From the NCBI RefSeq assembly GCF_054482595.1, contig NZ_CM137008.1: 64,000 bases of DNA. One strand, 5' to 3'. How positions within the stretch are numbered: the first letter of the stretch is position 1; every line of letters starts with the position of its first letter. A model generated the notes under the pieces. That model was not told the origin of the DNA, did not search any database, and saw only the letters and a list, made by a program, of their open reading frames with translations. The translations under genes were made by a program, and so were the position numbers. This document shows, piece after piece, positions 22,807 through 40,667 of this stretch.

Positions 22807-23466
22807 ATGCCAGCTTTAGATTTGATTCGACCGTCGGTAACCGCCATGCGGGTGATTGCCTCCGTTAACGCCGAATTTGCGCGTGAACTGAAATTGCCGC
22901 CGCATATTCGTAGCCTCGGGCTGATTTCTGCTGATTCCGATGACGTCACCTACATTGCCGCTGATGAAGCGACCAAGCAGGCGATGGTGGAAGTGGTGTA
23001 TGGCCGCTCGCTGTATGCGGGCGCTGCACACGGCCCGTCACCGACTGCCGGTGAAGTGCTGATTATGCTTGGTGGGCCAAACCCGGCGGAAGTGCGTGCC
23101 GGTCTGGATGCGATGGTTGCGCATATTGAAAATGGCGCTGCTTTCCAGTGGGCTAATGATGCGCAAGATACGGCATTCCTGGCACATGTAGTTTCGCGTA
23201 CCGGTTCTTATCTCTCATCAACCGCCGGGATCACGCTTGGCGATCCGATGGCGTATCTGGTGGCACCGCCGCTGGAAGCGACCTACGGCATTGATGCAGC
23301 GTTGAAATCTGCCGACGTACAGCTGGTGACCTATGTCTCGCCACCGTCTGAAACCAACTACTCGGCAGCATTTTTAACCGGTAGCCAGGCAGCGTGTAAA
23401 GCGGCCTGTAACGCCTTTACCGATGCAGTGCTGGAAATCGCGCGTAATCCAATCCAGCGTGCGTAA
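22807..23466 (+). CDS. eutL: EutL, BMC shell protein (tandem-BMC trimer)
   Basis: 219 aa. Confidence 0.95.
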
Positions 23467-23478
23467 TGGAGGTTGCCG

Positions 23479-23979
23479 ATGATCAATGCACTGGGATTGC
23501 TGGAAGTGGACGGCATGGTCGCTGCGATAGATGCAGCGGATGCCATGCTCAAAGCAGCTAACGTTCGTCTGCTCAGTCACGAAGTGCTTGACCCTGGTCG
23601 CTTAACGCTGGTGGTGGAAGGCGATCTAGCGGCGTGTCGTGCGGCGCTGGACGCAGGTTGTGCTGCCGCGATGCGTACCGGGCGTGTCATCAGCCGTAAG
23701 GAGATCGGTCGGCCAGACGATGACACCCAGTGGCTGGTTACTGGCTTTAACCGCCAGCCGAAGCAACCCGTAAAGGAACCCGACGCGCCAGTTATCGTCG
23801 CGGAATCTGCTGACGAGTTGTTGGCGCTGTTAACATCAGTACGTCAGGGAATGACGGCAGGAGAAGTGGCTGCCCACTTTGGCTGGCCGCTGGAAAAAGC
23901 CAGAAATGCGCTCGAACAGCTCTTTTCTGCCGGGACGTTACGTAAACGCAGTAGTCGTTATCGTCTCAAGCCCCATTAA
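23479..23979 (+). CDS. eutK: EutK, BMC shell protein with C-terminal helix-turn-helix-like extension
   Basis: 166 aa from ATG 23479 (MINALGLLEVDGMVAAIDAADAMLKAA...); GGAGG RBS at 23468-23472. Confidence 0.9.
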   Translation: MINALGLLEVDGMVAAIDAADAMLKAANVRLLSHEVLDPGRLTLVVEGDLAACRAALDAGCAAAMRTGRVISRKEIGRPDDDTQWLVTGFNRQPKQPVKEPDAPVIVAESADELLALLTSVRQGMTAGEVAAHFGWPLEKARNALEQLFSAGTLRKRSSRYRLKPH

Positions 23980-24024
23980 CCTGTCGGAGGTGCCGGGTGT
24001 CCTACAACACCCGGCATTAACATC

Positions 24025-25077
24025 ATGAAAAAGACCCGTACAGCCAATTTGCACCATCTTTATCATGAACCCTTACCCGAAAACCTGAAGCTCACGCCGA
24101 AGGTCGAAGTGGATAATGTTCATCAACGACAGACAACGGATGTCTATGAACATGCTTTGACGATTACCGCCTGGCAGCAGATTTACGATCAGCTGCATCC
24201 GGGCAAGTTTCATGGTGAATTTACGGAAATTCTACTCGATGATATTCAGGTTTTTCGTGAATACACCGGTCTGGCGCTGCGTCAGTCGTGTCTGGTCTGG
24301 CCGAACTCGTTCTGGTTTGGCATTCCGGCGACGCGCGGTGAGCAGGGATTTATCGGTTCGCAATGTCTGGGAAGCGCAGAAATAGCGACGCGCCCTGGTG
24401 GAACCGAGTTTGAATTAAGTACGCCGGACGATTACACGATCCTGGGCGTAGTGCTTTCTGAAGATGTCATCACCCGGCAGGCTAACTTTTTGCATAATCC
24501 GGATCGGGTATTACATATGTTGCGTAGCCAGTCGGCGCTGGAAGTGAAAGAGCAGCATAAAGCCGCGCTGTGGGGCTTTGTCCAACAGGCGCTGGCGACG
24601 TTTTGCGAGAACCCGGAAAATCTTCATCAGCCTGCAGTGCGAAAAGTGCTGGGGGATAATTTGCTAATGGCGATGGGGGCGATGCTGGAAGAAGCGCAGC
24701 CAATGGTGACGGCGGAAAGCATCAGTCATCAGAGTTACCGTCGGTTGCTTTCCCGCGCCCGTGAATATGTGCTGGAAAACATGTCCGAACCGGTGACGGT
24801 GCTGGACTTGTGTAATCAACTGCATGTCAGCCGCCGCACGCTACAAAACGCGTTTCACGCTATTTTAGGAATTGGCCCGAACGCGTGGCTGAAACGCATT
24901 CGCCTGAACGCCGTACGCCGCGAACTGATAAGCCCGTGGTCGCAAAGCACAACGGTAAAAGACGCCGCCATGCAGTGGGGATTCTGGCATCTGGGGCAAT
25001 TTGCCACGGATTACCAGCAGCTGTTTGCCGAGAAGCCGTCGTTGACGTTGCATCAGCGGATGCGGGAATGGGGGTGA
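24025..25077 (+). CDS. eutR: EutR, AraC-family activator of the eut operon
   Basis: 350 aa; C-terminal AraC-type HTH; last gene of the eut cluster. Confidence 0.92.
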
Positions 25078-25082
25078 GGGAG

Positions 25083-25985
<903 letters not shown>

Positions 25986-26855
25986 TTATCGCTTTTTCGA
26001 ATGTGCTTTCTGGTTGTCGAACCAGTGGAAATAACTGATCACGCCTTCAGCAATCGCTGTGGCGATTTTCTGACGAAACGCCGCCGTGCCTAACAGTCGC
26101 TCTTCTTCCGGGTTGGTGATAAACGAGGTTTCCACCAGCACCGAAGGAACCGACGGCGATTTCAACACCACAAACGCGGCTTGTTCGGTGTTGCGGCTGT
26201 GCAGTTTATGCACCGGCTTAATCTTTTTCAGAATATGCGAGCCAAGCGTCAGGCTGTTTTTAATAGTATCGGTTTGCACCAGATCAAACAGCACTTGCTG
26301 CAATAGGTGATCCTTGTCAGTCGCCTTTTTACCGGCAACTTCATCGGCGCGGTTTTCGCGTTCAGACAGGTATTTCGCCATTGCGCTACTTGCCCCACGG
26401 TTAGAGAGGGCAAATACCGAAGCACCGGCAGCTTTCGGGTTGGTAAAGCCATCGGCATGAATTGACATAAACAGATCTGCGCCATGTTTATGGGCGATTT
26501 CAACGCGATCGTAAAGTGGGATAAACGTATCGCCAGAACGCGTTAAACGCGCATCAATCCCATGATTACGCAAAATGGAACGGACGTTTTTAGCAATCGC
26601 CAGCACCACATGTTTTTCTTTCGAACCGTTGCGTCCGATCGCTCCGGTATCAATTCCGCCGTGGCCTGGATCGAGAACAACGACACGTTTGCCGCCAGAT
26701 TTTTTGGCTTTCGGCTTGCTGTGTCCGTTGCTGGTTTTTAAAGGTTCGTCTTTGGCGATGGCTTGCGACATTCCTGACAACGTCAGGGCAGCCAAACCGG
26801 CTTTCAGCACCTGGCGGCGCGAAGTGAGTGTTTTTAGTGGTTTAAAAGTGCTCAT
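25986..26855 (-). CDS. amiA: N-acetylmuramoyl-L-alanine amidase AmiA (Tat signal peptide)
   Basis: 289 aa; twin-arginine motif SRRQVLKAG; amiA-hemF spaced by 3 bp. Confidence 0.95.
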   Translation of the reverse strand: MSTFKPLKTLTSRRQVLKAGLAALTLSGMSQAIAKDEPLKTSNGHSKPKAKKSGGKRVVVLDPGHGGIDTGAIGRNGSKEKHVVLAIAKNVRSILRNHGIDARLTRSGDTFIPLYDRVEIAHKHGADLFMSIHADGFTNPKAAGASVFALSNRGASSAMAKYLSERENRADEVAGKKATDKDHLLQQVLFDLVQTDTIKNSLTLGSHILKKIKPVHKLHSRNTEQAAFVVLKSPSVPSVLVETSFITNPEEERLLGTAAFRQKIATAIAEGVISYFHWFDNQKAHSKKR

Positions 26856-27068
26856 ACGGCCTGAGTTGTAATAATAAAGTTCCAGATGTTATATCGTATC
26901 GCGTAATCCGTTACGACCGTTTGCTGTTGAGAATTGTTTTACTTTTCATTTCAATAGTTGACAACTCCCCATTATGCCACTTTTTCAACCGATTTTCGTC
27001 AGATATTGGCTAATTCGACCGTTCACGCCATAATCAGCCTTTTAACCCGCAAAAAGGTAACGAATACC

Positions 27069-27494
27069 ATGGAGATACGCGTATTTCGCCAGGAAGATTT
27101 CGAAGAGGTCATCACCCTTTGGGAGCGTTGCGACTTGCTGCGTCCGTGGAACGATCCGGAAATGGACATCGAGCGTAAGATGAACCATGACGTCAGTTTG
27201 TTTCTGGTCGCTGAGGTAAACGGTGAAGTGGTCGGAACGGTGATGGGCGGTTATGACGGGCATCGCGGGTCCGCTTATTATCTTGGCGTGCATCCAGAGT
27301 TTCGTGGGCGTGGAATTGCCAATGCGTTGCTTAACCGGCTGGAGAAAAAGCTGATTGCTCGCGGCTGCCCGAAAATTCAGATCAACGTGCCGGAAGATAA
27401 CGACATGGTGCTCGGAATGTATGAACGCCTGGGATATGAACACGCCGACGTGCTGAGTCTGGGTAAGCGTTTGATTGAAGATGAAGAGTACTGA
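27069..27494 (+). CDS. ypeA: GNAT-family N-acetyltransferase YpeA
   Basis: 141 aa from ATG 27069 ([14 protein letters not shown]...); acetyl-CoA-binding motif [10 protein letters not shown]. Confidence 0.85.
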
Positions 27495-27930
27495 GTTTCA
27501 TCCTGTCCATTATGATGCGCACGGTCGCCTGCGTTTACCCTTGCTCTTCTGGCTTGTGCTATTGCTTCAGGCGCGAACCTGGGTGCTGTTTGTCATTGCC
27601 GGTGCGTCGCGCGAGCAGGGTACTGCGCTGCTAAATCTGTTTTATCCCGATCACGATAATTTCTGGCTGGGGCTGATTCCTGGCATTCCGGCGGTGCTGG
27701 CATTTTTGTTGAGCGGTCGGCGGGCTACGTTTCCTCGCACCTGGCGTGTACTCTATTTTCTGTTGCTGTTGGCGCAGGTGGTTTTACTTTGCTGGCAACC
27801 GTGGCTGTGGCTGAACGGTGAATCCGTTAGCGGTTTCGGTCTGGCGCTGGTAGTGGCGGATATTGTGGCGTTAATCTGGCTGCTGACCAATCGACGTTTA
27901 CGCGCTTGTTTTAATGAAGTAAAAGAATAA
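27481..27930 (+). CDS. yfeZ: Inner-membrane protein YfeZ
   Basis: 149 aa from ATG 27481 (track ORF starts 2 codons earlier at TTG); multiple hydrophobic segments; overlaps the ypeA 3' end by 14 nt. Confidence 0.8.
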
Positions 27931-27990
27931 CGGCACTTTTTGGTGAATTTGCACTCCAAGCAACGTTATTGAATAACCAAAGGAAGTGAC

Positions 27991-28566
27991 ATGAAATCGC
28001 TGCGTTTAATGTTATGCGCTATGCCGTTGATGCTGACCGGCTGTTCCACGATGTCGTCAGTTAACTGGTCTGCCGCTAATCCGTGGAACTGGTTTGGATC
28101 GTCCACCAAAGTGAGCGAGCAGGGCGTGGGTGAATTAACGGCGTCCACACCACTGCAAGAACAAGCCATTGCTGATGCGCTTGATGGCGATTATCGCCTG
28201 CGCAGCGGAATGAAAACCGCGAACGGCAACGTGGTGCGCTTTTTTGAAGTGATGAAAGGCGACAACGTGGCGATGGTGATTAACGGCGATCAAGGCACGA
28301 TCAGCCGCATTGATGTGCTGGATAGCGATATTCCTGCTGACACCGGTGTTAAAATCGGTACACCGTTTAGCGACCTTTACAGCAAAGCATTTGGCAATTG
28401 CCAAAAAGCTGATGGTGATGATAATCGTGCCGTCGAATGTAAAGCCGAAGGCAGTCAACATATTAGCTACCAGTTCAGCGGGGAATGGAGTGGTCCTGAA
28501 GGGTTAATGCCTTCGGACGATACCCTGAAAAACTGGAAAGTCAGTAAAATTATCTGGCGGCGTTAA
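27991..28566 (+). CDS. yfeY: Lipoprotein YfeY
   Basis: 191 aa; lipobox LTGC in signal peptide (MKSLRLMLCAMPLMLTGCS). Confidence 0.85.
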   Translation: MKSLRLMLCAMPLMLTGCSTMSSVNWSAANPWNWFGSSTKVSEQGVGELTASTPLQEQAIADALDGDYRLRSGMKTANGNVVRFFEVMKGDNVAMVINGDQGTISRIDVLDSDIPADTGVKIGTPFSDLYSKAFGNCQKADGDDNRAVECKAEGSQHISYQFSGEWSGPEGLMPSDDTLKNWKVSKIIWRR

Positions 28567-28577
28567 TTTGCGTCTGA

Positions 28578-29561
<984 letters not shown>

Positions 29562-29581
29562 GCGTTTCTGATTCATTGATT

Positions 29582-29618
29582 AAAGGCCAGGCAGTAACAT
29601 TACTGACTGGCCTTTTTA
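29582..29618. terminator. Bidirectional rho-independent terminator between convergent yfeX and yfeW
   Basis: Long hairpin aggccaggcagtaa-cat-tactgactggcct followed by TTTTT. Confidence 0.55.
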
Positions 29619-30923
29619 TTACTTTTGTTTTAACGCCGCATACACCTGATCAACTACCCAACCATACGTTGCAATCGGCAGCTGACCGCTTTCGAACATA
29701 TTGGGATTCTGTTGCGGATCGGCAACCGGCGAATGTGGCTTGTTGCTTAACATCACAATCGCCATATGATTCACCGGATCGATAACGGTCACCGTTCCGG
29801 TCCAGCCAGTGTGACCGTAGGTTTGCGGGCTTGCCAGCGTGCCAAACGTCGGCGTCATGGTGGCATTACCATTCACGCGCCAGCCGAGGCCAAAAGTGGC
29901 ATCTTCCTTAGAGCTGGTGGTGAACATCTTCACCGTTTCCGCACTGAACAGCTGCACATCGCCATAGCCCCCGCCGTTCAGCATCGTTTGCATTAACACC
30001 GCAATATCGCCGGTATTGGAAAACAAACCTGCGTGCCCGGAAACGCCGCCCATCGAATAAAAGGCTTTTTCATCGTGTACCTGACCCCAAATCGTGGTGG
30101 TGCGGATATTCGGGAAGTGGATCACGCCATCGCGGGTATTGCCGTTCAGTTCAGTCGCGGCAATTTGCTGCGGTTTAAAGCCTTTCAGCAGTGGATTAAA
30201 CATTGTGTGCGTCAGGCCGAGCGGGCGATAAATCGACTCTTCAACATAGCGGTCAAGCGGCTGACCGGTGACCGACTCGACGATAAATCCAAGCAGCATG
30301 TAATCGACATCGCTGTAGATATGCTTGCTGCCGGGCTGATACTCCAGCGGTGTACGTTTAATCATCTCCAGCGTCTGGCCTTTATCCTGGGAATATAACG
30401 CGCCCGCGACCGCTTTATTAGGGTATTGTGGATCTGCCGGGAAACCGCCGCTGTGATGCAGCAGGTCGGCTATCCGCAGCGTGTTTTTGCCTTTAATCGT
30501 ATCGCTCGGGCTATCGGCAAACCCTGGAATATATTTCGCAATCCGATCGTCAGGATGCAGTTTGCCTTCGCTCATTAGCTTTTGCAGGGCGAAGTTAGTG
30601 GCGTACATTTTTGTGTTTGAGGCCAGGTCATACAGTGTATCGGTGGTGGCTTTTACAGGCTGTGCCATCAATACGCTGCCATCGTATTTTTTCGCCGCTC
30701 CCCAGGCTTTGCGATACACAATCTGATTATCTTTAATAATCAGCAGGTTTACGCCGGGATAACCGGCTTCAACTTGCTGGCTTATCCAGTTCGACATCTG
30801 GTTAAGCCGTTCGACGTTGAACCCTGCTTTCTCTGGCGAACTTTCTGTCAGAACAGGGTATTTTGCGGCGCTGACGCTACAGCTGACAGCCAGCAGAGAA
30901 AGATAGAGCATTGTCCGTTTCAT
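29619..30923 (-). CDS. yfeW: Penicillin-binding protein 4B (class C beta-lactamase-like)
   Basis: 434 aa; signal peptide; SxxK-type serine motif region (LASNTKM). Confidence 0.85.
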   Translation of the reverse strand: MKRTMLYLSLLAVSCSVSAAKYPVLTESSPEKAGFNVERLNQMSNWISQQVEAGYPGVNLLIIKDNQIVYRKAWGAAKKYDGSVLMAQPVKATTDTLYDLASNTKMYATNFALQKLMSEGKLHPDDRIAKYIPGFADSPSDTIKGKNTLRIADLLHHSGGFPADPQYPNKAVAGALYSQDKGQTLEMIKRTPLEYQPGSKHIYSDVDYMLLGFIVESVTGQPLDRYVEESIYRPLGLTHTMFNPLLKGFKPQQIAATELNGNTRDGVIHFPNIRTTTIWGQVHDEKAFYSMGGVSGHAGLFSNTGDIAVLMQTMLNGGGYGDVQLFSAETVKMFTTSSKEDATFGLGWRVNGNATMTPTFGTLASPQTYGHTGWTGTVTVIDPVNHMAIVMLSNKPHSPVADPQQNPNMFESGQLPIATYGWVVDQVYAALKQK

Positions 30924-30925
30924 AA

Positions 30926-32350
<1,425 letters not shown>

Positions 32351-32353
32351 GGG

Positions 32354-33250
32354 TTATTCCTTGTCTAAAACCTGACGAATAAAGCCGCCGTGTTGATCCA
32401 GGCGTTTTTTAGCTTCTGCGGCATCGAGATTTTTCAGTACCATCACAATGGCCGTTTTACAGTTGCGCTCGCAGGCAATTAACGCCGCTTCCGCTTGTTC
32501 GGCATTACATCCGGTGGCGTTTTTAACAATATTGACCTGGCGCACATGCAGTTTTTCGTTGGTGGCGACCACATCGACCATCAGGTTGCCGAACACTTTG
32601 CCAGATTTAATCATCAGCCCGGTGGAGAGCATATTGAGCACCAGTTTCTGCGCTGTACCTGCTTTCATCCGCGAAGAACCGGTAACCACTTCGGCACCTA
32701 CAATCGGTGTAATGGCAAACTCTGCGGTGGTTGAAACGGCGCTCCCCGGATTACAGGAAATTCCCACTGTGCGGCAGCCGAGCTGGCGTGCGTATTCCAG
32801 TCCGGCAATTACATACGGCGTGCGACCACTGGCCGCAATGCCAACCACCACATCCTGCGCGGTTAAGCCGATGTTTTTCAGGTCGTTAACACCACCTTCC
32901 CGGCTATCTTCAGCGCCTTCCACCGCGTGCTGAATGGCATATTCGCCTCCAGCAATCAAACCAACCACCAAACCCGGTTTCACGCCATAGGTGGGCGGAC
33001 ATTCGCTGGCATCCAGAATCCCCAGACGACCGGATGTTCCCGCACCGAGATAAATCAGACGACCGCCGCCGCTGACCTGGGCGTGGATAACATCGATCGC
33101 CGCGGCGATATCCGGCAGTACGCGCTCAACGGCGAGTGGTACAGTTTTATCTTCATCGTTGATAATCCGGCACATTTCCAGCGTTGATACGCGGTCAATT
33201 TCAGCCGAGGCGGCGTTCGAGCCTTCGGTAATCATCTTTTCAAGTTGCAT
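32354..33250 (-). CDS. murQ: N-acetylmuramic acid 6-phosphate etherase
   Basis: 298 aa; SIS domain; 3 bp upstream of murP. Confidence 0.95.
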
Positions 33251-33413
33251 CGGTGGTGACCTTACTATTTACGATCAAATAATTGCAGATGTATGGAATC
33301 ATATATCCCGAATTGACAGACTTAAAGGAATCATTGAGTCTACACTCGCAGAGTGTGAAGAGCGTCATAAGAACTTAAGCGGAATTTTTGCTGCCAGCCC
33401 AGGAGAGTGGAAG

Positions 33414-34271
33414 ATGTTGTACCTGACGAAAATACGCAATGCGGAAAGTGAATTTACCGAGAACGAGCAAAAAATTGCTGACTTTCTGCGGGCCAACGTG
33501 AGTGAGCTGAAATCCGTCTCTTCGCGCAAGATGGCGAAACAGCTCGGCATCAGCCAGTCGAGTATTGTGAAGTTTGCCCAGAAGCTCGGCGCACAAGGAT
33601 TTACTGAATTGCGTATGGCGTTAATAGGCGAATACAGTGCCAGCCGGGAGAAAACGAATGCCACTGCGCTGCACCTGCACAGTTCGATTACCAGTGATGA
33701 TTCGCTGGAAGTGATTGCCCGCAAACTGAATCGCGAAAAAGAGCTGGCGCTGGAGCAAACCTGCACGTTGTTCGACTACGCGCGGCTGCAAAAAATCATT
33801 GAGGTCATCAGTAAAGCACCGTTTATCCAGATAACGGGCCTGGGCGGATCGGCGCTGGTGGGGCGCGATCTGTCGTTCAAACTGATGAAAATTGGCTATC
33901 GCGTGGCCTGCGAAGCCGACACGCACGTACAAGCCACCGTTTCCCAGGCGTTGAAAAAAGGCGATGTACAAATCGCTATCTCTTACAGCGGCAGTAAAAA
34001 AGAGATTGTCTTGTGCGCAGAAGCGGCACGAAAGCAGGGGGCAACGGTGATTGCCATTACTTCTCTGGCTGACTCTCCGCTGCGGCGGCTGGCGCATTTC
34101 ACGCTCGATACCGTTTCCGGTGAAACCGAATGGCGTAGCTCGTCGATGTCTACCCGCACGGCGCAAAATTCTGTTACCGATTTACTGTTTGTTGGTCTTG
34201 TGCAACTCAATGATGTGGAGTCATTGAAAATGATTCAGCGCAGCAGTGAGCTAACACAACGCCTGAAATGA
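33414..34271 (+). CDS. murR: MurR, RpiR/SIS-family repressor of murQP
   Basis: 285 aa from ATG 33414 ([11 protein letters not shown]...), AGGAGAG RBS; divergent from murQ. The track ORF start at 33159 is an unsupported extension overlapping murQ. Confidence 0.9.
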
Positions 34272-34399
34272 TGCATAAAGCAGCGACTGGATTGAGATTT
34301 TCCTGAATTAGTGAGCTGATCCGCAGCAATATTTTGTTTATCCTGTATTTTCAGAGGGAATGGAGTGTAACGCTCTGTATTAACAAGGAGAGCATTAAA

Positions 34400-35191
34400 A
34401 TGGGTAAACTCACGGGCAAGACAGCACTGATTACGGGCGCATTGCAGGGAATTGGCGAAGGAATTGCCAGAACTTTTGCGCGTCATGGCGCAAACCTAAT
34501 CTTGCTGGATATCTCCCCTGAGATCGAAAAGCTGGCGGACGAACTGTGTGGTCGTGGTCATCGCTGTACGGCGGTTGTCGCCGATGTGCGTGACCCGGCG
34601 TCGGTAGCCGCAGCTATCAAACGCGCGAAGGAAAAAGAAGGGCGCATTGATATCCTGGTGAATAACGCAGGCGTTTGTCGTCTGGGCAGTTTCCTCGATA
34701 TGAGCGATGACGATCGCGATTTCCATATTGACATCAATATTAAAGGCGTATGGAACGTCACGAAGGCGGTGCTGCCGGAGATGATTGCCCGCAAAGATGG
34801 TCGCATTGTGATGATGTCTTCGGTCACTGGCGATATGGTGGCCGATCCGGGTGAAACGGCGTACGCCTTAACGAAAGCGGCGATTGTTGGCCTGACAAAA
34901 TCGCTGGCGGTGGAGTATGCGCAGTCTGGTATTCGCGTTAACGCCATATGCCCTGGATACGTTCGCACACCAATGGCGGAAAGCATTGCCCGCCAGTCGA
35001 ACCCGGAAGATCCAGAGTCAGTGCTGACTGAAATGGCAAAAGCAATCCCGCTGCGTCGCCTCGCCGATCCGCTGGAAGTCGGCGAACTGGCGGCCTTCCT
35101 CGCATCGGATGAATCCAGCTATTTAACCGGTACACAGAATGTGATTGATGGCGGCAGCACACTGCCGGAGACGGTTAGCGTCGGTATCTGA
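34400..35191 (+). CDS. ucpA: Short-chain dehydrogenase/reductase UcpA
   Basis: 263 aa from ATG 34400 (MGKLTGKTALITGALQGIGEG...); SDR Rossmann motif. Confidence 0.9.
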   Translation: MGKLTGKTALITGALQGIGEGIARTFARHGANLILLDISPEIEKLADELCGRGHRCTAVVADVRDPASVAAAIKRAKEKEGRIDILVNNAGVCRLGSFLDMSDDDRDFHIDINIKGVWNVTKAVLPEMIARKDGRIVMMSSVTGDMVADPGETAYALTKAAIVGLTKSLAVEYAQSGIRVNAICPGYVRTPMAESIARQSNPEDPESVLTEMAKAIPLRRLADPLEVGELAAFLASDESSYLTGTQNVIDGGSTLPETVSVGI

Positions 35192-35203
35192 TTCACCTCT
35201 GTT

Positions 35204-35232
35204 TCCTCCCTGCATGTGTGGGGAGGATTTCG
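35204..35232 (+). terminator. Terminator-like hairpin downstream of ucpA
   Basis: tcctccc-tgcatgtgtg-gggagga followed by a T-rich tract. Confidence 0.4.
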
Positions 35233-35348
35233 TCTTATTCCCTTTTCAACTTCCAAATCACCAAACGGTATATAAAACCGTTACTCCTTTCACGTCCGTT
35301 ATAAATATGATGGCTATTAGAAAGTCATTAAATTTATAAGGGTGCGCA

Positions 35349-36365
35349 ATGGCCGTTAACTTACTGAAAAAGAACTCACTCGCGCTGGTCGCTTCTCTGC
35401 TGCTGGCGGGCCATGTACAGGCAACGGAACTGCTGAACAGTTCTTATGACGTCTCCCGCGAGCTGTTTGCCGCCCTGAACCCGCCGTTTGAACAGCAATG
35501 GGCCAAAGATAACGGCGGCGACAAACTGACGATAAAACAATCTCATGCCGGGTCATCAAAACAGGCGCTGGCAATTTTGCAGGGCTTAAAAGCCGACGTT
35601 GTCACTTATAACCAGGTGACCGACGTACAAATTCTGCACGATAAAGGCAAGCTTATCCCGGCGGACTGGCAGTCGCGCCTGCCGAATAATAGCTCGCCGT
35701 TCTACTCCACCATGGGCTTCCTGGTGCGTAAGGGCAACCCGAAGAATATCCACGACTGGAACGACCTGGTGCGCTCCGACGTGAAACTGATTTTCCCGAA
35801 CCCGAAAACGTCGGGTAACGCGCGTTATACCTATCTGGCGGCATGGGGCGCAGCGGATAAAGCTGACGGTGGCGACAAAGCCAAAACCGAACAGTTTATG
35901 ACCCAGTTCCTGAAAAACGTTGAAGTGTTCGATACTGGCGGTCGTGGCGCGACCACCACTTTTGCCGAGCGCGGCCTGGGCGATGTGCTGATCAGCTTCG
36001 AGTCGGAAGTGAACAACATCCGCAAACAGTATGAAGCGCAGGGCTTTGAAGTGGTGATTCCGAAAACCAACATTCTGGCGGAATTCCCGGTGGCGTGGGT
36101 CGATAAAAACGTGCAGGCCAACGGTACGGAAAAAGCAGCAAAAGCCTACCTGAACTGGCTCTACAGCCCGCAGGCGCAAACCATCATCACCGACTATTAC
36201 TACCGCGTGAATAACCCGGAAGTCATGGACAAACTGAAAGATAAATTCCCGCAGACCGAGCTGTTCCGCGTGGAAGACAAATTTGGCTCCTGGCCGGAAG
36301 TGATGAAAACCCACTTCACCAGCGGCGGCGAGTTAGACAAGCTGTTAGCGGCGGGGCGTAATTAA
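35349..36365 (+). CDS. cysP: Thiosulfate/sulfate-binding periplasmic protein CysP
   Basis: 338 aa with signal peptide; first gene of cysPUWA. Confidence 0.95.
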
Positions 36366-37198
36366 TGTTTGCAGTTTCTTCAAGACGCGTGCTGCCGGGC
36401 TTTACCTTAAGCCTCGGCACCAGTCTGCTGTTTGTTTGCCTGATTTTGCTGCTGCCGCTTTCCGCGCTGGTGATGCAGCTTTCTGAGATGAGCTGGGCGC
36501 AGTACTGGGAAGTGATCACCAACCCGCAGGTGGTCGCGGCCTACAAAGTGACGCTGCTGTCGGCGTTTGTGGCATCAATTTTTAACGGCGTTTTCGGCCT
36601 GCTGATGGCGTGGATTTTAACCCGTTATCGCTTTCCGGGCCGCACGCTGCTTGATGCGCTGATGGATTTACCCTTTGCGCTGCCAACGGCAGTCGCCGGT
36701 TTAACGCTGGCCTCGCTCTTTTCTGTAAACGGTTTTTACGGTGAATGGCTGGCGAAGTTTGATATCAAAGTCACCTATACATGGCTGGGGATTGCGGTGG
36801 CGATGGCCTTTACTAGCATTCCGTTTGTGGTACGTACCGTGCAGCCGGTGCTGGAAGAGTTAGGCCCGGAATATGAAGAAGCGGCGGAAACGCTTGGTGC
36901 AACGCGCTGGCAGAGTTTCTGCAAAGTGGTGCTGCCGGAACTTTCTCCGGCGCTGGTGGCGGGCGTGGCGTTGTCGTTTACCCGTAGTCTTGGTGAGTTT
37001 GGCGCGGTGATATTTATCGCCGGGAACATCGCCTGGAAGACGGAAGTGACGTCGCTGATGATTTTTGTGCGCTTGCAGGAGTTTGATTACCCGGCGGCGA
37101 GCGCGATTGCTTCGGTGATCCTCGCGGCATCCCTGATACTGCTGTTCTCAATTAACACTCTGCAAAGTCGCTTTGGTCGGCGTGTGGTAGGTCATTAA
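36365..37198 (+). CDS. cysU: Sulfate/thiosulfate ABC transporter permease CysU (CysT)
   Basis: 277 aa; TAATG overlap with the cysP stop. Confidence 0.95.
   Translation: MFAVSSRRVLPGFTLSLGTSLLFVCLILLLPLSALVMQLSEMSWAQYWEVITNPQVVAAYKVTLLSAFVASIFNGVFGLLMAWILTRYRFPGRTLLDALMDLPFALPTAVAGLTLASLFSVNGFYGEWLAKFDIKVTYTWLGIAVAMAFTSIPFVVRTVQPVLEELGPEYEEAAETLGATRWQSFCKVVLPELSPALVAGVALSFTRSLGEFGAVIFIAGNIAWKTEVTSLMIFVRLQEFDYPAASAIASVILAASLILLFSINTLQSRFGRRVVGH

Positions 37199-40601: not shown

Positions 40602-40667
<66 letters not shown>

Follow-up and report, generated by a model that had tools for sequence, protein, structure and literature searches.

The amiA-murR region of Escherichia coli is probably a mosaic of separately controlled transcription units

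The window analyzed here is a stretch of 64,000 nucleotides (NCBI RefSeq assembly GCF_054482595.1, contig NZ_CM137008.1), within which we studied the region from amiA to murR, whose gene ends, 25986 and 34271, were the limits chosen in an earlier reading made from the sequence alone. The gene map was drawn from the RefSeq annotation of an identical strain and from our own translation; the two agree, and the open reading frames are intact. Several sequenced Escherichia coli chromosomes match the 10.5-kb segment 25000-35500 with 100% identity, and at least 80% of it is present in 5313 of 5426 complete E. coli genomes. The region comprises amiA, ypeA, yfeZ, yfeY, yfeX, yfeW (pbp4B), murP, murQ, and murR, with hemF and ucpA on its flanks (Table 1). 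The sequence-only reading had identified and placed all nine genes correctly, as RefSeq and translation show, and the families were confirmed by Pfam and NCBIfam; it had gone on to treat them as a neighborhood enriched for cell-envelope and peptidoglycan-recycling functions. Our analysis favors, with a probability of roughly 0.8, the view that the region is no single functional cluster but a mosaic of six or more transcription units under separate control.

The gaps from hemF to ucpA measure 3, 213, -14, 60, 95, 57, 2, 3, 163, and 128 nt, the negative value being the ypeA/yfeZ overlap, for which translation returned exactly the 14 nt reported earlier, and the coding strand switches three times within the region. 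A permissive Rfam scan of 23000-37000 detected no known RNA family. For comparison among species, 16 loci from 16 enterobacterial genome records were obtained from a YfeZ alignment (YfeZ identity down to 41%; loci are cited below by L number), and the E. coli proteins were mapped onto them; L002 is almost indistinguishable from E. coli.

Table 1. Genes and control elements of the region, with the genes that interrupt ypeA-yfeZ elsewhere
Feature	Position	Strand	Basis or remark
hemF, oxygen-dependent coproporphyrinogen III oxidase	25083-25982	-	Just beyond the left edge of the region; 3 nt after amiA, second gene of the amiA-hemF unit
amiA, N-acetylmuramoyl-L-alanine amidase exported by twin-arginine translocation (Tat)	25986-26855	-	NCBIfam AmiA equivalog, 580 bits; Pfam Amidase_3
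Divergent amiA/ypeA control region, 213 nt	26856-27068	.	Alignment; blocks invariant in 11 species
ypeA-yfeZ sigma-70 promoter, TTGGCT-17-CATAAT	27006-27034	+	Promoter scan; hexamers are those in PMC3946193
ypeA, cytoplasmic GNAT acetyltransferase	27069-27494	+	Pfam Acetyltransf_1, 1.9e-21; NCBIfam PRK03624 equivalog, 260 bits
ypeA stop/yfeZ start overlap, 14 nt	27481-27494	+	Translation; yfeZ ATG at 27481, ypeA stop ends at 27494
yfeZ, DUF2919 inner-membrane protein	27481-27930	+	Pfam DUF2919 (PF11143), 1.7e-49, residues 6-145
yfeY sigma-E-type promoter, GGCACTT-N16-TCCAA	27932-27959	+	In the 60-nt yfeZ-yfeY spacer; one mismatch to consensus
yfeY, DUF1131 outer-membrane lipoprotein, sigma-E regulon	27991-28566	+	Pfam DUF1131, 1.1e-84
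Stem-loop AATGCCACG-gattg-CGTGGCATT with T-tract, likely yfeY terminator	28620-28652	+	Between yfeY and yfeX; 9-bp GC-rich stem
yfeX, cytoplasmic DyP-type (porphyrinogen) peroxidase	28662-29561	+	Pfam Dyp_perox_N, Dyp_perox_C; PMC3215433
Hairpin between convergent yfeX and yfeW, likely bidirectional terminator	29582-29615	.	-20.2 and -20.7 kcal/mol; z -4.6 and -5.6
yfeW/pbp4B, penicillin-binding protein 4B	29619-30923	-	NCBIfam equivalog, 883 bits; last gene of murQ-murP-pbp4B
murP, EIIBC component of the phosphotransferase system (PTS) specific for N-acetylmuramic acid (MurNAc)	30926-32350	-	RefSeq name; Pfam PTS_EIIB and EIIC
murQ, MurNAc-6-phosphate etherase	32354-33250	-	RefSeq name; Pfam SIS/GKRP
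murQ/murR divergent control region, published MurR operators (PMC9177960)	33251-33413	.	Promoter-like site 33359-33330 (-)
murR, RpiR-family repressor of murQP-pbp4B and of itself	33414-34271	+	Pfam HTH_6 and SIS
ucpA	34400-35191	+	RefSeq annotation and translation
BOF/YgiW-type gene in other species	L007:9509-9907, L008:9505-9942, L012:9507-9899, L015:9456-9845	-	Breaks the ypeA-yfeZ unit

On the minus strand, amiA and hemF would constitute the first unit, joining a cell-division amidase to a heme-synthesis enzyme, with regulatory inputs from Cpx at amiA and from OxyR at hemF. Activation of amiA by CpxRA has been reported in Salmonella (PMC6231687), and hemF belongs to the OxyR regulon (PMC9576991). 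The spacer that parts amiA from ypeA is ~206-221 nt long in 12 of 15 loci, and divergent sigma-70 promoters have been located within it, that of ypeA-yfeZ opposite that of amiA-hemF (Shimada 2014, PMC3946193). On the amiA side of this spacer, at ~26888-26952, two blocks were observed to be invariant in 11 species, GTTATATCGTA...CGAC and TTTTAC...TT(T/G)CA. The second, which on the amiA strand reads TGAAATGAAAAGTAAAA, is similar to CpxR half-sites (GTAAA) and coincides in part with the amiA -10 element already published. AmiA, YpeA, YfeY, and YfeX were reported to show no response together with the neighboring eut operon.

The second unit, ypeA-yfeZ, would be transcribed from a conserved promoter that has been described as sigma-70 constitutive (PMC3946193) and whose -10 ATAATC is invariant in the alignment of 11 species. 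Translational coupling of the two genes is plausible because the yfeZ start lies inside the end of ypeA without a ribosome-binding site at normal spacing: no Shine-Dalgarno sequence so placed was found in the 25 nt upstream of yfeZ, where only a GAAG abuts the ATG. Ribosomes that complete ypeA are probably required for translation of yfeZ in E. coli. Four loci (L002, L003, L005, and L006) have the identical 14-nt overlap, five Erwinia-type loci have junctions between an 11-nt overlap and a 43-nt gap, and in L004 and L017 a DUF2919 paralog, not yfeZ, overlaps ypeA by 20 nt. Opposite-strand genes part ypeA from yfeZ in five of the 16 species, one of which carries a 2.6-kb insert with a DoxX gene and a gene for a multi-pass membrane protein of 509 aa, a putative permease judging from its appearance. 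The adjacency of ypeA and yfeZ appears to be conserved across Enterobacterales, with co-translation not obligatory. Four species were seen to have a gene for a periplasmic BOF stress protein (YgiW-type OB-fold) between the two, on the minus strand. At the same position in Pseudocitrobacter (L004:9498-9974) and Superficieibacter (L017:8316-8801) lies the divergent DUF2919 paralog, of 158-161 aa, which is a tandem duplication of yfeZ. As for the protein products, YpeA is represented by crystal structures 2pdo, 4qus, and 4qvt (structural-genomics entries), has no known substrate, and is a candidate in lysine-acetyltransferase and succinylation screens.

The third unit would consist of yfeY alone, transcribed from its own conserved sigma-E promoter and closed by a hairpin terminator. 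Searching with the sigma-E consensus GGAACTT-N16-TCNAA gave only two matches within the 64-kb window. One stands immediately after the yfeZ stop codon, with its -10 element ending 31 nt upstream of the yfeY ATG. The other, GAAACTT-N16-TCAAA at 40610-40637 on the minus strand, lies ~34 nt upstream of yfeK and is very likely the yfeK promoter; yfeK is a documented sigma-E regulon gene, and the motif search is therefore specific here. The yfeY element matches at least 9 of 11 positions in 14 of the 16 species, mostly at the same position, a level reached by 1.4% of random 120-mers (same loci). In agreement with this assignment, yfeY is reported to be induced 3.3-fold on sigma-E activation and to have been induced in three earlier studies (PMC2731931), and its product has been treated as a model outer-membrane lipoprotein (PMC8284480). 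All 16 YfeY orthologs have the lipobox LTGC followed at +2 by Ser or Ala and no inner-membrane retention residue. The protein bears the NCBIfam name "RpoE-regulated lipoprotein," and is represented by crystal structure 2qzb; its N-terminal tether is disordered. Within that tether, just past the lipobox, residues 26-37 form a Trp-rich motif, WSAANPWNWFGSS, common to the orthologs, which also have an invariant cysteine pair, C137/C150, that probably forms a disulfide. The structure is compatible with a small protein-binding module and points to no partner. Retention of yfeY where pbp4B is absent argues against YfeY being a dedicated PBP4B partner. The earlier proposal that YfeY has an envelope-related role is thus borne out, as something already known, and the description of ypeA, yfeZ, and yfeY as poorly characterized also agrees with our survey, DUF2919 and DUF1131 being seldom mentioned in the literature searched.

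Between yfeY and yfeX, the call of a likely yfeY terminator was based on a local stem, its T-tract, and conservation; the spacer as a whole folds no better than shuffled sequence (z = -1.3). The sequence of the stem is kept in nine Enterobacteriaceae, and a different strong hairpin occupies the same spacer in most other species sampled. Just upstream of the stem-loop ATGCCACG...CGTGGCAT we observed a TAnAAT element (TAAAAT in E. coli; 28604-28652 with the stem-loop) that is conserved in nine Enterobacteriaceae. Because the stem is conserved in sequence itself, without compensatory change, a protein-binding palindrome and a yfeX leader are conceivable roles for it besides that of yfeY terminator. 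Beyond it, yfeX would form the fourth unit, which converges on yfeW at a likely bidirectional terminator.

On the opposite strand, murQ-murP-pbp4B would be the fifth unit, repressed by MurR, and murR would be the sixth. These genes constitute a MurNAc catabolic locus with a MurQ etherase, a MurP EIIBC component, and a divergent RpiR/SIS regulator in tight linkage: murQ and murP are 3 nt apart, murP and pbp4B 2 nt, and murR diverges across the 163-nt spacer. Expression of murQ, murP, and pbp4B was derepressed in a murR deletion mutant, and MurR repression is relieved by MurNAc-6-phosphate (PMC9177960). A repeat search detected no inverted repeats of MurR operators in the murQ-murR spacer. In an RNA-seq study one particular expression pattern was confined to yfeW, murR, murP, and murQ (four of 39 genes examined), and in one assay of cell-wall stress their deletion had no phenotypic effect, a result that tells against a functional cell-wall cluster. 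With its strand switches, separate promoters and terminators, and five published regulators, the region does not appear to be a single operon or co-regulated cluster. The documented regulators (CpxRA, OxyR, sigma-70, sigma-E, and MurR) differ from unit to unit, which speaks against a coherent envelope cluster and comes close to the independent transcription under unrelated regulation that the sequence-only reading had itself named as refuting it.

Gene order among the 16 loci is also inconsistent with one ancient cluster. The hemF-amiA pair is divergent from ypeA-yfeZ-yfeY in 15 of them, and yfeX follows yfeY in 13; L010 and L013 genuinely lack it, and the sequence of L015 stops too soon to show it. 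The mur genes adjoin yfeX in only three loci (L002, L003, and L017), so that in 13 they are not beside the block, and in the other informative species yfeX (yfeY in L013) is followed directly by ucpA or cysP. On this evidence hemF-amiA/ypeA-yfeZ-yfeY-yfeX would be an old enterobacterial block, and the mur island between yfeX and ucpA/cysP would be restricted to Escherichia and a few relatives. Over the whole of 25986-34271 the neighborhood does not appear to be conserved, only the block does, and, as far as gene order indicates, amiA and the mur genes lie close together only in certain lineages. Partial islands were observed in Citrobacter sedlakii (L003:13477-16019), with murR and murP-yfeW, and in Superficieibacter (L017:12382-15112), with murP-yfeW only and in reversed orientation; murQ was found at neither locus, even at relaxed thresholds, and the pair that persists in both encodes MurP and PBP4B.

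The mur island appears, moreover, to be still undergoing remodeling within E. coli. It is at least 80% covered in 4150 of the 5426 complete genomes, and the ypeA-yfeX block is covered to that extent in 5425, always with at least 95% identity. A common short form (compare L035) differs from the window by two clean deletions that spare murQ-murP. The first, 29658-30839 (1182 bp, 394 codons in frame), removes the pbp4B interior and leaves an 87-nt pseudogene; the second, 33341-34212 (872 bp), takes part of the murQ-murR spacer together with murR codons 1-266. Of the 5426 genomes, 1047 contain the diagnostic murQ-ucpA junction with an identity of at least 99%; ATCC 11775, the type strain, is among them. 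Because remnants of pbp4B and murR persist, the short form represents loss, not ancestral absence. Its murPQ genes are only 94.8% identical to those of the window, and this lineage presumably expresses MurNAc catabolism without the repressor. Foreign origin of the island was considered and received no sign from base composition (GC 0.47-0.58 throughout). Adjacency of the mur genes in three of 16 loci and the deletion of pbp4B and murR in 1047 of 5426 genomes indicate that amiA and mur are neighbors through lineage-specific history; the apparent enrichment in cell-wall genes would come from two unrelated units joined by that history, one being amiA and the other the mur operon together with murR. 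We infer that the units share no function. Taking ~70 peptidoglycan-related loci among ~4300 E. coli genes, we estimate roughly a ~15% chance that any given one of them has another within five genes, and the clustering probably does not go beyond chance. The claim of one coherent peptidoglycan or envelope cluster is thus not upheld, with mur beside yfeX in three of 16 loci and polymorphic in E. coli.

The context of DUF2919 outside Enterobacterales points elsewhere. The family is small (174 clusters at 50% identity among 1.84 billion representatives), and ten distant members were sampled, one protein at a time. In five of the ten contexts the DUF2919 gene has a codirectional YfeX ortholog downstream, 42-45% identical along its full length except for a truncated one in L021 (32%). 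YfeX directly follows DUF2919 in L018 and L028, and in L023, L033, and L020/21 a gene for an exported, non-lipoprotein product of 129-132 aa stands between them and abuts or overlaps the DUF2919 gene. The gap from the DUF2919 gene to the next gene is -8 to +93 nt in these DyP-linked loci. The 129-132 aa protein was evaluated as a divergent YfeY and rejected (hhalign probability 0.5%, no Pfam family). In L023, L028, and L033 the flank continues with crr-ptsI-ptsH-cysK-cysZ, a backbone shared with E. coli, and L023, from Aliivibrio, adjoins napFDABC. The latter layout matches that of Vibrio fischeri VF_1900-VF_1898, a putative three-gene operon ending in yfeX, with two hypothetical upstream genes and napFDABC adjoining (Dailey et al. 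2011, PMC3215433), and VF_1900 would accordingly be the DUF2919 gene. The oldest linkage would then be that of yfeZ, an exported protein, and yfeX, common to Vibrionaceae. No GNAT, amidase, or hemF gene was present near DUF2919 in the five DyP-linked distant loci, which speaks against a cell-wall cluster. The earlier idea that the local context informs on ypeA, yfeZ, and yfeY is not sustained in its cell-wall form, as the older DUF2919 context points to yfeX.

Several further observations were made around these distant genes. In L018, L023, L028, and L033 a gene for a lysine-rich DUF2956 protein (110-118 aa, membrane anchor at the C terminus) lies divergent upstream of DUF2919; a YbjQ gene stands between the two in L033 and also upstream in L020. 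The five contexts without DyP place DUF2919 after lolCDE-like genes, next to corA, in a sugar-biosynthesis cluster, among neighbors without informative annotation (L024), or, for the Salmonella paralogs, in an adhesin/glycosyltransferase island. The Salmonella enterica paralogs (L025-L027, 8001-8516) are 26% identical to YfeZ, and their neighbors comprise an adhesin-like gene of ~3000 aa, an HMW1C-type glycosyltransferase gene (L026 and L027), and genes for FlhDC-like and CaiF/GrlA-like regulators, a context that has nothing in common with that of yfeZ.

The alternative that survives best is a narrower module of YfeZ, an exported partner, and YfeX, acting for example in porphyrin(ogen) or peroxide-damage handling at the membrane, near which hemF would have come to lie later; it is compatible with the mosaic, and we regard it as doubtful. 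It accounts for the YfeX orthologs after DUF2919 in half of the distant contexts, for yfeX behind yfeZ-yfeY in 13 of the 16 enterobacterial loci, and for the match between the operon of Dailey et al. and Aliivibrio L023. Porphyrinogens are substrates of the products of both hemF and yfeX, and YfeX-dependent overproduction of protoporphyrin has been described (PMC4263509). YfeZ has four transmembrane helices (AlphaFold2 model, predicted local distance difference test score 94.7) and a predicted N-in/C-in topology with a positive-inside pattern by loop charge analysis; the best-conserved DUF2919 motifs fall on the cytoplasmic N terminus, with Y11, D12, G15, and P20, and on periplasmic loop 1, with R44, Y55, and P56, a placement that suits such a module. 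No solved structure related to YfeZ was found. Against the module, however, no His, Cys, or Met that could ligate heme or metal is conserved in DUF2919, and a fold search with YfeZ gave generic helical bundles only. The module is further weakened by the backbone common to L023, L028, and L033, which may reflect one inherited arrangement instead of repeated selection, by the absence of a DyP gene from the five other contexts and of yfeX from L010 and L013, by an exported partner that is not homologous between lineages, and by the sigma-E promoter and terminator that set E. coli yfeY apart before yfeX. A more specific version, in which YfeZ, its exported partner, and YfeX form a conserved cross-envelope module for membrane damage related to porphyrin(ogen) or peroxide, with YpeA and hemF recruited beside it in Enterobacterales, is speculative and somewhat less likely still.

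The proposal that YpeA, YfeZ, and YfeY act with AmiA and/or the Mur proteins in a coherent envelope or peptidoglycan-recycling cluster is improbable despite the conserved amiA/ypeA divergence, the inner-membrane and outer-membrane locations of YfeZ and YfeY, and the periplasmic BOF/YgiW-type gene found in four species, since the hemF, yfeX, and ypeA products are cytoplasmic enzymes with no known cell-wall link and the other evidence given above runs against it. The mosaic of separate units remains our preferred interpretation, and several points weigh against it in turn. Its operon boundaries were drawn from motifs, gene spacing, and published work, and in one paper yfeY and yfeX are given as one unit. 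Both amiA and yfeY answer envelope-stress systems, Cpx and sigma-E, and the region may therefore have a loose envelope theme. The near-constant length of the amiA/ypeA spacer and its invariant blocks could reflect shared regulation, not mere inheritance. Finally, yfeZ, a gene for an exported protein, and yfeX have stayed linked from Vibrionaceae to Enterobacteriaceae, which suggests a functional tie, and to deny any shared function is too strong for those genes.

The region is already known and ordinary, and to call it an envelope cluster restates the existing annotation of a well-studied chromosome with a generic inference; only the yfeZ-yfeY-yfeX module has potential for novelty. If true, the cross-envelope module would provide first functions for DUF2919 and DUF1131 and a physiological role for YfeX. 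The mur context is unfit for guessing the functions of ypeA, yfeZ, and yfeY because its adjacency is recent and unstable. For DUF2919 and DUF1131, genomic context, where it is used as a guide, instead suggests YfeX as the candidate partner and sigma-E-mediated envelope stress as the relevant condition, in place of peptidoglycan recycling. The natural variant that lacks MurR and PBP4B and keeps murQP could be useful for work on the regulation of MurNAc catabolism and on the dispensability of PBP4B.

Compared with the E. coli K-12 region eutR-hemF-amiA-ypeA-yfeZ-yfeY-yfeX-yfeW-murP-murQ-murR-ucpA-cysP (RefSeq), the genes, their order, strands, and spacing are alike; long-form strains show no difference, whereas about one-fifth of complete E. 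coli genomes differ by the pbp4B and murR deletion. The mur genes are the reference MurR/murQP-pbp4B locus itself (PMC9177960), with no difference. Listed in the sigma-E regulon with the lipoprotein genes bamE/smpA and bamC/nlpB, yfeY has a promoter of the GGAACTT-N16-TCNAA type, encodes an outer-membrane lipoprotein, and is sigma-E induced. The yfeZ-yfeX link is partly in the literature already through V. fischeri, although Dailey et al. did not identify the first gene as a YfeZ homolog. As in VF_1900-VF_1898, E. coli yfeZ-yfeY-yfeX are codirectional (plus strand, gaps of 60 and 95 nt) on the crr-ptsIH-cysK backbone. Unlike the V. fischeri operon, the E. coli arrangement has as its middle gene that of the unrelated lipoprotein YfeY, with a sigma-E promoter of its own and a terminator behind it, and ypeA is joined in front by the 14-nt overlap.

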